DNA of 64,000 bases from an uncultured Holosporaceae bacterium (GTDB taxonomy: Bacteria; Pseudomonadota; Alphaproteobacteria; UBA3830; CASESI01): positions 37,802-101,801 of the forward strand of contig CASESI010000014.1 of the NCBI GenBank assembly GCA_949290705.1, read 5' to 3'. Each line of letters starts with the position of its first letter. Positions within the stretch are counted from its first letter, which is position 1. This document shows positions 2,268 through 8,200 of this stretch, piece by piece. The notes under the pieces were generated by a model. It had not been told where the DNA came from. It saw nothing but the letters and a program-made list of their open reading frames with translations, and ran no database searches. The translations under genes were made by a program, and so were the position numbers.

Positions 2268-5200
2268 TAGCTTGCCTGAGAAAAGGTTTGAGTTTTTACA
2301 TTTGTTTTAAATCCGTGCCTTGCAGCCTCATGAGAACTACCATTCTTTTCTTCAAAATGGATATCAACCTTATGTTCTTTACCTAATATTGCTTCTTCTG
2401 TTGGAATTCTTTCATCCTTAATTTCTTCTTCATTGACAGCAATATTTGTATGCCCTCCATCTTTTTCTGCTGTATGAATTTCTTCTTGTTGCATGCTATT
2501 CTTCATTTCTTCGAATGTCGCAATTTTTTTATCCACTTCTTTCATCTTATTATTTAGTAATTCCATTTTTTCATTAATATAATCTGTAAATTGAGTAATC
2601 ATATTGTTGATTGGATGTGATGAATTTTCTTGAATGCCATTTTCTTTACGATTTAACATATCATTTCTTGATATTTTTTCTTTTCCTACTAAATCAGACA
2701 TACCAATTTGCTCTGATACAATAACTTTGTTACCACGATAAGTATTTTCATCAACCATTGAAACATATTTCATACATTCAGAGATTGGAAGCCCCAATTT
2801 TTCATCAAGTGATTCTAATCTGCCACTTTCATATAATGGCCGAATGGCTTCTTTATATTTTTCTAAAGATTCCCCATTTTCAATAGCATTTAATGCCTCT
2901 GCAACCGATACAGCTTCCTCCTTTGAAATGTTAATATCTGCATGATCAGAATTTAAAAGCTCATCTATGGCTGTTTTATTGATTGAACTAATTGCTGACT
3001 GCACATTGTTATGCAAAACATGTAACTCCTTCGTTTTGATCTCATTTGAAACAAATTCCAACTTAGATTTAATATCGATTCCGCACTCAGTTTCTAAAAG
3101 TTGTAAACCTTTTTGTTTTGCTTCATTGGAATTCAACTCTTCAATATACTCTTTATACTTTGAAATATCATTACCAGAAGCGATATCACTAAGTAAATCT
3201 TTTATTTTTGTATCACCTATATAAACATGCAGAGCTCCATCTGAAACCTTTATCAAATCAGACTTAGCTGATTCTCGTATTGGTTTTGTTGTATATTCTG
3301 ATGCATATTCTGAAATCATGTCTAATATTTTTACTCCCGTTTTATTTTCTATATTGTGCATTTCGGAGGTAATGGTTGAATCAGCAAAGATATTATTAAC
3401 TACTTCTTTTGATATTTCTTCGCCATTTTTAATTTTATCCAAAACCTTAGATATTGAAATTTTTGTAGGATATTTTTTTTCAAGTGATTTCAACGCATCA
3501 TGAGTAAATTCATGCGTAACCAAAGTTTTTGCTTGATTTGATATATTTTCAATACTTTTTTTAGTAGTATCAATAAATTTTGCTTCTCTAGGTTTACTAT
3601 TATTTGCTTCATTAATATTTTTTGAATTCCAATTTTCATCTATTCTGCTATTGATGTAAGAAAAATAATCACCTATTTTCACATCATATTTATTTTCAAT
3701 TTCTGTGATTAGTTCTCTGTTATTTTGGTATAAATCTTTTACAAAGTCTTTTTGTTCCTCACTCAACTCCTTTCCTGAATGTTCTGCTTCAAAAATATCC
3801 TTTATTTTTTCTTTTGTTTCTAATAAATCTTTATCATAACCTTCAGATTGCAAATTTTCTATCTGGTGCAACTCTTCATATTCTGGTTCTTTGATTTCAT
3901 TTAAATTACTATATAGATTTTCAAAACCTAATTTATCGCCATAAATAGCTTCTACTTTTTCAACTAATTCAGGACTTGTTGTAATAAACTCACCTATCTT
4001 TCCTTTTGCATCATCAATATCTCCGTTGTCATTCAATTCTTTTAAAGCATCTACAATTTCAGATAATTTAGAACTTTCATCTTTAGTAAAATTATTCGTA
4101 TCTTCACTAATTGATTGCAAATTAATAACTGTAGATTTTACAAATTTCTTTTGCAAATCTTTAGCATTTTCATACTCTTTCTTTTTTACTTTATTCCTAG
4201 ATTTTGTTTCGTTATTTTCCTCAATCATACGTTTTGTATTTTCAGAATAAGAATTAACTTTCGGTTCCACCGATAATTTATCTAAAATATTTTGCGTATT
4301 GTAAGGAGAATTTTCTAATCTTTCTAAATGTTTAGATGATTCCTCTGTATCATTTTTCATTAATGATTGATATTTAGATTTTTCCGTTTTAAATTCTTCC
4401 ACTTTTTCGCTTATTTTAATGCCATTAGCATTTTCTATAACATCTGTGATATTTATATTCAATTCTTTTTCAACAGCCGATAATTGATCTTTAAGCCCAC
4501 CTTCTGATGCAGGAGTAAGTAATATTTTTAAATCATCGTGATTAATCTTACTAAATTCCCCATTTTCTATTTTTGAAATAATATCTTTTACGTCTATTCC
4601 GCCAAAATATGAGTTAGACATCTCAATCGTCAATTTATCATTAATATTTTTAGCTTTAGCTGATATTGAATAATTCACCCCGTTATTAACTGATTTTTCA
4701 AGCTTGTCTATAATTTTTACATTCTCTTCTTTTTCTACATTTTTTATTTTTTCAACTAGTTCTTTATCGGATAATATCATATCAACTTCTTTTTTCGTTA
4801 CTGTTTCAGAATTCGCAATCTTCTCCATTAGATTTTTAATATTAACTCTATTAGAGGATTCGAAATCAATATTTTTAATTTTTTCGAATAATTGATTTCC
4901 ATTTTTTCCATATCCAAAACTTTTATTAATGCTATTTGTACTTTCCGTCTCTTTTTCTTTTATCTCATTAATATGCTTATAGAATTCTTGTTTTTCGCTT
5001 TCCAATTTTTTTACTTGATTATATTTATTTTCTAAATGATCTATTATCGCAGATCCTGTGCTATGTTCTATTACCTTCAATTCAGATTTATTTGACAAAA
5101 GATTCTTCAATTTTTCTTCTTGTTGATGTGTTAATTCTTTATCATCATTTATTGCTGATAAAAGTTCTTTTGTATCATTCAATGTGCTTTCCTGCACACC

Positions 5201-8200
5201 TATTTGAACTTTATCATCATTTAATTTTCCAACTGTAATATTAAGATCATAAGGAGAACTATTTTCTCTTATTTCCTTCTCTATTTCATCTTCTGTTTTT
5301 AATTGTTCCAATATTGGCTCTTTTTCAAATGTAGAATTCATTTTTATTAAAGTCATATTAACAGTACCAGGAAATTCCTGGTTTACAGCAACTAATAAAT
5401 TATGATTTTCTTCCATAAAAGAATGCAATTCGGACGTTAATTTTTCCCTTTTATCTTGATCTGTTTCTCTTTGCAATTTATCAAGCATCGATGATAAATC
5501 CTCAAGTGCAGATTTATTTGCGCTTGAATAACCGACACTATCAAACAAATCTGCGTGATTTTCTAAAATATTATTTATACTACCTGAAACATTTTTTAAA
5601 ACTGATTTTTGCTCTTCTACTTTTTTGTTATATTGGTCCAAAATTTCATTATTACGAGATTGAATTTTGGTATTTTCCTCCTTCAACTTCTCCTGTATTT
5701 CACTTTTACTAATACTAACTGCCGTATTCTTAGCATTAGAAATTTTTTCTTCTAGCAATTTACTACTTGCTTGTTCAAGTGCATCTATAATTTTTACATC
5801 ATATTTCACCTCAATTTCTTGCACCTTTGATTTAAGTCCATTACTTGTGCCATCGAGTAACTTTTGTAAATGTTCTGGATTTATGTCAGAAACTCTTCCT
5901 TCTTCTATGCAAGTTAAAATATTTTTCAAGCTTATATCCCCGAAAGTTTTATAATCTTCTGTTAATGTAATTTTTTCATTTGCAAGAGTTGCATGCTTAG
6001 CGGGTTCAACCAAATCATATTTACTTGCATACTCCGTCAACAACCCTATAACGGATACTCCGTACAATTTTTCCATATCTTTAATAGAATTTATAACACC
6101 TGGATCTTTTATAACTACATTAATCTCGGTTTGTAAGATTTTTTCTCCATTTGAGATTCTTGTTAACAAATCTGTTATTTTTACACCTTCAGGTTGAGTT
6201 TTATCTATTTCTTTTAAACAATCTCCTATAACTGAAGTATTTAAAATTTTATCAGCCTTGTCGGAATATTGTTTTATAACCTTTGAAACATCTTTTTCCA
6301 CAATATTAACTTTTTCTTCTTGAATCCCATCCTTGTTAACAATATTATCACCGACATTTTCTGTGATTGTAGGTGCTTTATATATTTCCTCAGAAGGTTC
6401 TATTCCATTTTTTGAAAATGCATTATTAATAAAATTTCCTACATTTGTACCTGAATTAAAATCGAGTTGATTTATGATTTTTAGAGCTTCATTATTACTT
6501 GCCAAAGCTTTCATCTCTTCAGGCGTTGCAGATCCATCTGCGATTTTTGATACGATATCAAACATCGATATAGTTTTCCCATCTATAGTAAAATCAATAC
6601 TTTTCAATTGCCCTTTATATTTTGCACTATCGTCCATGCTAGATGAATTTAGAAAAGCTTTAGTTTCTATCTCAGATTTAATATCATTAACTGTTTTAGT
6701 TCCTTCATTTAACACATCTGCAATGCCTTTTCCAACAAGACCTAGAACATTGTATTCATTTTCAAGTACCTCAATTGCTGACTTTATTTTTGGATCATTT
6801 AAAATATCTATATCTGCAGCACTTAATACTCCACCTGCAGCTACCGTACCGAGTAATGCAGCAACATTTATCCTATTCCCTTTACTATCTGTCTGAAACT
6901 CTAATCTGCCAGTTAATTCCTTGTTTGCCAATATTGATTTTGCAGTCTCAGTTAATTGTTGTTTTATATTATCGGCATTTTGTGCAATTTCTTTGCTACC
7001 AAGTTTCACATTTGAGCCTGAAGCATTATGCATATTGGATGAAATTGTATTTGGATTCAACATATCATTATTTACCACTTCAGTTCCGTTAATTTTATTC
7101 GTTAATGCATTTATTTTGTCTGATAATCCATCTGTTATATTTGCAAATAACCCACTTCCTGCGGCCATTGCTGTACCAGTCAATCCCAACGCTGATCCTG
7201 CCAAATTTAAAAGCGCTCCACCAACATTGTTATTAGATGTATTTTTAAGCTCTTCCGCATTTGTATTATTAGTATTTCCGGATAATTTATCATTCAAAGC
7301 ATCTGCCCCTGAAGCAAGCAGATTACTTCCCGTTGCAATTGCTGTACCAGCCAATCCCAATGTTGCCCCTGCCAACCCAGCCGTTGAAGACGCCACTGTT
7401 TTTACAGCATTTGCTATAGGTGACAAAGCCTCTTTGACTGTATTAACCTTATCAGATACTATATCCTTAATGTTATTAACAGTATTTTTTGCGGCTTCAA
7501 CCTTATCAGAAATAGATTCTTTCACATCATTAACTTTATCAGAAATGTTATCCTTAATATCAGATAGCTTTTCTTTTACATTATTCACACTTTCTGAAAC
7601 ATTTTCTTTAATATCATCTACTTTATCAGATATAACATCTTTAACACTATTTGCTTTTTCAGTGAATGAATCCTTAATATCACTAACTTTACCCCCAACA
7701 ATATCTTTAACAGTTGTAATTTTTTCACCAATAGAACTTTTTATATCACTAACATTATCACCTATTGCATCTTTTACATCATTTGCTTTTTCTTTGATAT
7801 CGTCCCAATTTGATGCAACTGCTGCCACACCTCCTGCGACTGCAGCACCAGCAACAACAGTAGCAGCGATTCCTGTTGCCGTTGCAATAGTACTTGCATT
7901 GTTTGTAACAAAATTTTTAGTTGAAGAAGCTGCATTTGAAATTCCAGCTCCAACGTTTATAGCAGCAGTAGAAATTGCAGATCCAGCATTTGATAGCTTT
8001 TCTTTCACAGTATCCCATTTAGAAGATTTTTCTGATGCTGTTTTTTCAACATCATCTAACGTTACCTTACTACTGTTCGATTTAGAATCTTCTTTCTCTG
8101 TAGATTTTGCCTCTTCTTCAACATCACTCAAAGAAACTATCCTTTTTTTTTGTTGCTTATCACTCGATTCTTGTTCCTGTATTTCTGTTGGATTAGATTT

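Follow-up and report, generated by a model that had tools for sequence, protein, structure and literature searches.

Giant repetitive proteins often form the main interface of host-dependent bacteria with their hosts, and mostly they are annotated as hypothetical. In the Ebh/Embp rod of staphylococci, small helical bundles alternate in the form of FIVAR-GA repeats. The repeats in the tandem-repeat proteins (TRP) of Ehrlichia are short, near-identical and largely disordered. TRP32, TRP47 and TRP120 as well as Ank200 of Ehrlichia are type I secretion substrates of Rickettsiales, for which the C-terminal 50 residues should be rich in LDAVTSIF and poor in KHPMWC (PMC3417381). Here, a protein of 3119 residues is described that is encoded in 64,000 nucleotides (nt) of DNA from an uncultured Holosporaceae bacterium (contig CASESI010000014.1, positions 37,802 to 101,801 of the forward strand; this whole stretch is referred to as the window). 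Its C-terminal part carries diverged copies of a small module, which is a new domain family in a well-known type of giant repetitive protein.

The giant protein is specified by a single open reading frame (ORF) at 2267..11626 of the window on the minus strand, comprising 3119 codons and a stop codon. In a preliminary description of this DNA, nine copies of a motif had been listed in the C-terminal part of the protein, each followed by a second element. All nine strings given for the first element and all six for the second are present in the translation, and the positions were good to about 25 nt, the nine copies starting at residues 1586, 1686, 1815, 1898, 2261, 2344, 2723, 2806, and 2906. 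The consensus proposed for the motif was less exact. Its literal pattern has no exact match in the protein, but the nine copies agree with it at 6 to 11 of 13 constrained positions. Recurrence of the motif is clearly above chance, since seven segments agree at 8 or more of the 13 positions, compared to a mean of 0.35 and a maximum of four in 200 shuffled versions of the protein.

To evaluate the copies individually, a profile built from eight of them was scored on the ninth, and the best domain score in each of 300 shuffles of the 1540-residue C-terminal region served as null. Seven copies reached 16.5 to 41.9 bits when left out, while the shuffles had a mean of -0.3 and maxima of 7 to 11. The copy at residue 1686 exceeded every shuffle with 12.8 bits, and the copy at 2906, with 9.4 bits, fell inside the top of the shuffle range and must be regarded as marginal. 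Judged by these left-out scores, composition does not explain the array. The nine-copy profile also detected two copies on which it had not been trained, at residues 2150-2224 and 2606-2677, with 12-14 bits, and the profile of the whole family described below gave them 30-37 bits. Of the earlier claim, the minimum of nine copies therefore stands, and the number was refined to 11 when the profile was iterated over the family. The array extends from residue 1585 to 2961, corresponding to nt 2744-6874 on the minus strand. The modules are listed below; A and B denote the first and the second member of a module pair in a super-repeat, and the ortholog is protein P0002 (see below).

6671..6874, minus strand (residues 1585-1652): module 1, 16.5 bits left out, insertion of 6 residues before helix 4
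6392..6574, minus strand (residues 1685-1745): module 2, 12.8 bits left out
5999..6187, minus strand (residues 1814-1876): module 3, A-type of super-repeat 1, 34.0 bits left out
5738..5938, minus strand (residues 1897-1963): module 4, B-type of super-repeat 1, 30.9 bits left out
4988..5179, minus strand (residues 2150-2213): module 5, degenerate, 12.3 bits with the nine-copy and 30.2 with the family profile, 55% identical to the ortholog
4661..4849, minus strand (residues 2260-2322): module 6, A-type of super-repeat 2, 37.8 bits left out
4397..4600, minus strand (residues 2343-2410): module 7, B-type of super-repeat 2, 36.7 bits left out, 78% identical to the ortholog
3629..3811, minus strand (residues 2606-2666): module 8, degenerate, 13.9 bits with the nine-copy and 36.6 with the family profile, helix 4 being ENKYDVKIGDYF, one of the strings given earlier as a second element
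3278..3463, minus strand (residues 2722-2783): module 9, A-type of super-repeat 3, 41.9 bits left out
3023..3214, minus strand (residues 2805-2868): module 10, in the B position of super-repeat 3, 23.2 bits left out
2744..2914, minus strand (residues 2905-2961): module 11, 9.4 bits left out and thus marginal, 68% identical to the ortholog

On the evidence of these profile scores, which derive from sequence, the C-terminal ~1400 residues are shown to be a real array, made up of 11 copies of a domain of ~60 residues that had no name before. The copies are 15-30% identical at the protein level and unrelated at the DNA level. No tandem repeats were found in the DNA of the array, and the few DNA-level matches within it are short (20-46 nt, 74-86% identity), some of them lying over helix 4. 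The copies are thus old and do not stem from a recent duplication, as had been suggested before.

The consensus derived from all 56 copies of the family is GVDVKDLLEKIANGEELSEEEIKKLLSNPELKKELKELEKEYGVDISDILENY. A glycine at position 14 is found in 50 of the 56 copies and one at position 43 in 41; positions 28-29 form an N/D-P cap, and the hydrophobic residues follow a regular pattern. Conservation is thus a matter of hydrophobic core residues, two glycines and a helix cap, and the column statistics of the 56 copies revealed no conserved polar catalytic constellation. The modules are acidic with a mean net charge of -3.7. For a single module (module 9), AlphaFold2, supplied with an alignment of the 11 paralogous copies, predicted four helices at residues 8-16, 23-31, 33-46, and 50-62, with values of 87-94 for the predicted local distance difference test (pLDDT) in the core and a disordered tail. 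In a model of the whole of super-repeat 2, the modules reached pLDDT values of 70-88, and the spacers appeared as long helices of low to medium confidence. The module is therefore predicted to be a compact folded unit of four helices.

The second element of the preliminary description is present, but it is not a separate one: it corresponds to helix 4 of the same ~60-residue unit and echoes helix 1. Both helices carry the element G-[VI]-D-[IV]-x-D-[IL]-L, so that the module begins and ends with it. Among 861 pairs of column windows, columns 43-53 were the best internal match to columns 1-11 (z = 3.8). As far as can be judged from this similarity, the echo of helices 1 and 4 hints at an ancient internal duplication.

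The array had been called irregular. Its uneven spacing is real, but it arises from a higher-order organization, three super-repeats of ~450 residues and one extra pair of modules. The three blocks (residues 1801-2246, 2247-2708, and 2709-3119) are homologous along their full length, with BLASTP E-values of 2e-30, 1e-19, and 4e-18 between them. Each super-repeat opens with two modules 83 residues apart, the A/B pair, followed by a helical spacer of ~190 residues; in the first two super-repeats, a degenerate module comes after the spacer. The extra pair, starting at residues 1585 and 1685, precedes the three blocks. Two spacers were delimited as follows.

5180..5737, minus strand (residues 1964-2149): helical spacer 1, aligned with spacer 2 in the super-repeat alignment
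3812..4396, minus strand (residues 2411-2605): helical spacer 2, from the super-repeat alignment and the AlphaFold2 model of super-repeat 2

To find further members of the family, the 11-copy profile was used in an exhaustive HMMER search of 1.84 billion representative proteins with a threshold of E <= 0.001. Seven proteins were retrieved, four of which, equal to four protein clusters, were considered real. The remaining three weak matches, P0005 to P0007, were rejected by eye, because they showed near-perfect short tandem repeats or were tail-fibre-like with only partial matches. The four members and the gene order at their loci are:

P0001 (the protein of the window): 3119 residues, E = 1e-162, match to itself; hsp20 - giant gene - comF - dapF
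P0002: 3480 residues, E = 1e-107, syntenic ortholog, 47% identical over 2017 residues; same slot, from an IMG metagenome
P0003: 5761 residues, E of about 1e-44, second subfamily, 17 modules; alaS - unknown gene - giant gene - rplS
P0004: 4832 residues, E of about 1e-44, second subfamily, 17 modules; alaS - unknown gene - giant gene - rplS

Altogether, the four proteins contain 56 modules. All four have units of ~60 residues with Gly14 and Gly43, the shared element at both ends, N/D-P at positions 28-29, and four helices as predicted, the features by which the family is defined, and in all four the array follows Gly/Ala-rich segments and precedes a conserved C-terminal tail. Between P0003 and P0004, identity amounts to 37% over 1468 residues, and their last modules are the counterparts of the marginal module 11. 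Clustering of the 56 modules placed the A-type modules of both subfamilies together, those of the distantly related P0003 and P0004 included, while B-type modules cluster within each subfamily. By this clustering, the A-type module is older than the split of the two subfamilies, and so is the A/B alternation. Besides the giant genes, no module-bearing ORF was detected among the other ORFs of the window and of the loci fetched for comparison. Scans of genome contigs gave no match to peptides from the giant protein; with DapF, they yielded only a distant Paracaedibacteraceae metagenome-assembled genome (33% identity), and modules were absent from the genes in the 20 kb fetched from it. Upstream of each giant gene of the second subfamily lies a gene for a large leader-bearing protein, located at 6542-9730 of locus L013 (1062 residues) and at 7245-9899 of locus L014 (884 residues). 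These two proteins are 27% identical to each other and contain neither a Pfam domain nor modules.

Comparison of P0001 with its ortholog P0002 showed the modules to be 59% identical and almost free of insertions/deletions; identity was 46% for the inter-module sequences and 29% for the N-terminal 1190 residues. The modules are the most conserved part between the orthologs. For the same two genomes, identity is 47% for the giant protein and 80% for DapF, a fast evolution that would, by analogy, be typical of exposed proteins. A strain variant, P0021 (3127 residues, locus L016), differs from the protein of the window at 87 positions in residues 1-1580 and at nine in residues 1581-3119. Synonymous divergence is 0.055 in the N-terminal half and 0.009 in the array half, about six-fold different, while the genes on either side are 98.9-99.6% identical. 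Hence the N-terminal half is considered a recombinant, mosaic allele, and the array nearly invariant.

The module had been described as unrecognised, and this was borne out by all comparisons performed. Pfam and NCBIfam gave no match in residues 1580-3119, and likewise none in P0002 and P0004. When 55 modules were scanned singly, no family was matched by more than three of them, all at E-values of 2e-4 or worse. PHROGs and PADLOC contained nothing for the module array, and in a profile search of PDB sequences the best match (E = 0.011) was a de novo designed protein. With Foldseek, no neighbour below E = 1 was found for the single-module model (best E = 1.6 and TM-score <= 0.34 in PDB; best E = 1.0 and TM-score <= 0.40 in BFVD), nor for the super-repeat model (best E = 3.8), a search in which small helical domains give little statistical power. 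Known helical repeats of the FIVAR/GA type could be dismissed as well, since FIVAR, GA and DUF1542 were not matched and the module has four predicted helices instead of three.

In working principle, the closest analogue would be a giant protein of the Ebh/Embp type. Both are giant proteins, exported in the one case and predicted to be so in the other, and both consist of serial small all-helical domains of two alternating types, arranged in a di-modular super-repeat of non-catalytic nature. The protein described here differs by four helices per module, by helical spacers of ~190 residues, by its presence in a Gram-negative alphaproteobacterium, and by copies that are far more diverged (15-30%). 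With the tandem-repeat proteins of Ehrlichia, it shares acidic, repeat-rich, lineage-specific and fast-evolving sequences; host interaction is known for the former and would be expected by extension for the latter. It is unlike them in having ~60-residue units predicted to be folded, no repetition at the DNA level, an N-terminal leader, and a C-terminus that fails the composition test for type I substrates. LDAVTSIF account for 36-50% of the last 50 residues and for 48-50% of the whole protein, and KHPMWC for 20-24% compared to 17-19%; together with the leader, these values led to rejection of a type I substrate. The motif GGxGxD occurs zero to one times, and RTX nonapeptides are absent. The rickettsial Sca autotransporters, surface proteins of obligate intracellular alphaproteobacteria, are also very large and fast-evolving and bear a signal peptide, which is predicted here. 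In contrast to these, the giant protein has neither a C-terminal beta-barrel translocator nor a passenger beta-helix, and its C-terminus is hydrophilic and helical. An autotransporter of this type was rejected, since no autotransporter profile matched and the C-terminal 150 residues are hydrophilic.

Outside the array, the protein is divided into a leader, a long N-terminal half, a central region and a tail, which have the following positions.

11564..11626, minus strand (residues 1-21): signal-peptide-like segment MKCISVIILVVLMLIRPAYTQ, hydropathy peak 2.0
8057..11563, minus strand (residues 22-1190): half rich in K/E/N, mostly helical or of low complexity as judged by composition, isoelectric point 8.6
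7127..8029, minus strand (residues 1200-1500): central region with Gly/Ala-rich hydrophobic segments
7412..7798, minus strand (residues 1277-1405): strict amphipathic repeat of 11 residues, hydropathy autocorrelation 0.74 at lag 11 and 0.62 at lag 22
2270..2743, minus strand (residues 2962-3119): hydrophilic C-terminal tail, with a terminal motif common to all four members

By hydropathy, comparable N-terminal hydrophobic leaders are present in all four members of the family. Their common architecture consists of long helical or low-complexity regions rich in K/E/N/S, which are broken by Gly/Ala-rich hydrophobic segments, the last one being located just before the array. In the protein of the window, a hydropathy scan of the central region peaks at residues 1244-1273, and inspection of the translation by eye revealed Gly/Ala-rich stretches at about residues 1407-1445 and 1467-1495. 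The stretch of 11-residue repeats produced sub-threshold matches in Pfam to Apolipoprotein (38.8 bits with a cut-off of 90) and LEA_4 (16.4 with a cut-off of 51.1), and also to YtxH. PHROG profiles of tape-measure proteins matched with E = 2e-15, confined to residues 1203-1536, and a ZorA-tail match was obtained in the central region as well. The resemblance to apolipoproteins, LEA group 3 proteins, YtxH and the centre of tape-measure proteins thus concerns residues 1203-1536 only, with their 11-residue periodicity and Gly/Ala-rich stretches. The periodicity itself is plain, and the Pfam scores lie far below the cut-offs; phage context is missing, and the matches do not reach into the array. 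A tape-measure protein was rejected because the matches span ~200-330 residues of profiles with 730-1600 positions and the neighbours are housekeeping and not phage genes. The matches in the central region may be compositional, or they may reflect a shared membrane-active design. In the tail, an alignment of the last 175 residues of P0001 to P0004 revealed the motif F.[EH]E..G...E.[AS]..H..K.N ... A[AS]. An observation apart concerns two antisense ORFs inside the giant gene on the plus strand, at 6921-8225 (434 residues) and 8577-9617 (346 residues). They cover Ala/Gly/Ser-rich and Lys/Glu-rich parts, and biased codon composition is the most likely reason for their presence.

The genomic setting is that of an ordinary bacterial chromosome with a GC content of ~30% in the window. 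Among the genes detected are dapF, the gene for a ComF-type phosphoribosyltransferase, hsp20, miaB, cysS, groEL, murC, murG, alr, mla genes, and the gene for a class I lysyl-tRNA synthetase; a TadE-like pilin (41701-42444) and the flagellar proteins FliK and FlgE (51781-56769) are also encoded, the FlgE-like hook protein being unusually long (896 residues). GroEL assigns the organism to the Alphaproteobacteria; the best named matches, from Azospirillum and Rhizobium, are 69% identical and metagenomic relatives 76-97%. The giant gene was found on three metagenome contigs with 1-6 nt differences, and the whole locus is present, identical or nearly so, on several metagenome contigs. An NCBI-derived record in a public protein collection, P0024, is identical to the protein of the window. 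On both the P0003 and the P0004 contig, genes for a TLC ATP/ADP translocase and for Hfq are present; the acetyl-CoA synthetase of the P0004 contig shares 72% identity with its counterpart in the window. The four organisms therefore belong to one clade, at least part of which possesses the translocase typical of energy parasites.

Several further features were noted at these loci. Adjoining the giant gene, a protein of 510 residues is encoded at 12502-14034 on the minus strand, with a signal-peptide-like start and neither a Pfam match nor a module. It is 26% identical to its syntenic counterpart in locus L012, while neighbouring genes reach 68-80%; it is a putative second exported protein of fast evolution next to the giant gene. 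In locus L004, at 12248-14374, just past the start of the window and upstream of dapF, a protein of 708 residues is specified that starts with a leader and gives a faint match of the apolipoprotein type. It contains no module, but one short similarity (E = 3e-4) to the 11-residue repeat region of P0002. At 58000-62000 of the window, the GC content rises to 0.39-0.43 from ~0.30 elsewhere, and a SulP/STAS ORF at 58453-59409 aligns with no more than the C-terminal portion of the sulfate-transporter profile, which could point to a split or decaying gene.

Taken together, the giant protein may be a Sec-exported, membrane-anchored fibrous scaffold, the acidic helical beads of which project for surface or host interaction, an explanation that is preferred here although we hold it with somewhat less than even confidence. 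Export would proceed via Sec through the predicted N-terminal signal peptide, and the Gly/Ala-rich hydrophobic segments together with the amphipathic 11-residue repeat just upstream of the array would provide membrane anchoring. The modules and spacers would then project like helical beads on an extended, semi-rigid string, acting as a structural stalk or as a multivalent binding platform at the cell surface, with the conserved tail as a tip or docking element. The bearer would be a host-associated, probably intracellular alphaproteobacterium, a view that is based on the ATP/ADP translocase encoded at the loci of P0003 and P0004. A number of points weigh against such a scaffold. The hydrophobic segments are Gly/Ala-rich and not classically transmembrane, and an outer-membrane barrel, a known surface anchor or a recognised signal for export past the periplasm was not found in the protein. 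No translocase or type IV secretion gene is located in the 64-kb window, and the intracellular lifestyle has therefore to be deduced from relatives. The alignments used for AlphaFold2 were shallow, with paralogous copies only (3 and 11 rows), and inter-module geometry is of low confidence, the predicted template modelling score of the super-repeat model being 0.29. The matches to tape-measure proteins and apolipoproteins may be nothing but compositional, and we infer localisation, topology and binding partners entirely.

Alternatively, the protein could be a translocated effector, delivered by type I or type IV secretion via its C-terminal tail into the host cell or the membrane of a vacuole, where the array would bind host targets multivalently and the Gly/Ala-rich segments would insert as in inclusion-membrane proteins. 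Both subfamilies share the conserved C-terminal motif, and a net charge of +2 to +3 is found in the last 25 residues, features compatible with this possibility, as are the translocase in relatives, hydrophobic segments between soluble parts, and acidic repeats like those of the Ehrlichia effectors (PMC3417381). Delivery of this kind appears unlikely, since all four proteins possess an N-terminal Sec-type leader, a feature missing from type I and from most type IV substrates, the composition test and the search for RTX nonapeptides were negative, and secretion-system genes do not adjoin the giant gene in any of the four loci. It would be about equally surprising if the protein remained inside the envelope, in the periplasm or at the inner membrane, as a cytoskeleton-like element or a spacer determining, for example, envelope geometry, and never met a host. 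The predicted signal peptide without any feature for the outer membrane or surface export would fit such a role, and so would a long helical protein with hydrophobic segments reminiscent of tape-measure and ZorA-tail proteins, an array that is nearly invariant between strains, and a gene placed among housekeeping genes. A core envelope component should, however, hardly evolve so much faster than the neighbouring housekeeping genes (47% compared to 80% identity) or be confined to one small clade, and between strains the N-terminal half is mosaic through recombination, as is often the case with exposed antigens. Very improbable, finally, are degenerate EF-hand-like modules binding calcium, by which the array would become a calcium-dependent switch or a calcium-stabilised rod. 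The modules are acidic, and the near-invariant glycine of the loop that joins helices 1 and 2 is followed by hydrophobic and acidic residues; the profile weakly matched calmodulin and myosin light chain (E = 0.4-2.9), and EF-hand_15 of Pfam was matched by two of 55 modules. But all these sequence matches are non-significant, the ligand positions 1 and 3 are wrong, being occupied by Glu/Ser/Lys and Ile/Met where calcium ligands such as Asp or Asn would be expected, the loop is usually one residue too long, and Foldseek finds no EF-hand protein among the structural neighbours, with a best TM-score of <= 0.34. EF-hands were rejected on these grounds.

The exported scaffold can be extended to a bolder proposal, which we regard as rather doubtful in its full form. 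The module would represent a new small helical fold and the four giant proteins a clade-specific apparatus by which a lineage of host-dependent alphaproteobacteria interacts with its hosts, and in which the Gly/Ala-rich segments and the 11-residue repeats insert into the membrane as an anchor, the A/B array displays diversified acidic surfaces, and the tail with its motif HE.A..H..K.N...AA is a new signal for export or docking.

By itself, the module family opens no long-standing question. It is absent from every curated library searched and restricted to four clusters among 1.84 billion proteins, all from one uncultured clade of alphaproteobacteria with low GC content. The module profile is a ready tool for annotating the genomes of this clade, and with ~60 residues for the module or ~150 for an A/B pair, it offers a compact target for structure determination, which may reveal a new fold. 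Once the host of the lineage is known, the giant protein becomes a candidate surface or effector protein. Its interest lies mainly in this possible new fold and in a signature protein of a host-associated clade of alphaproteobacteria.

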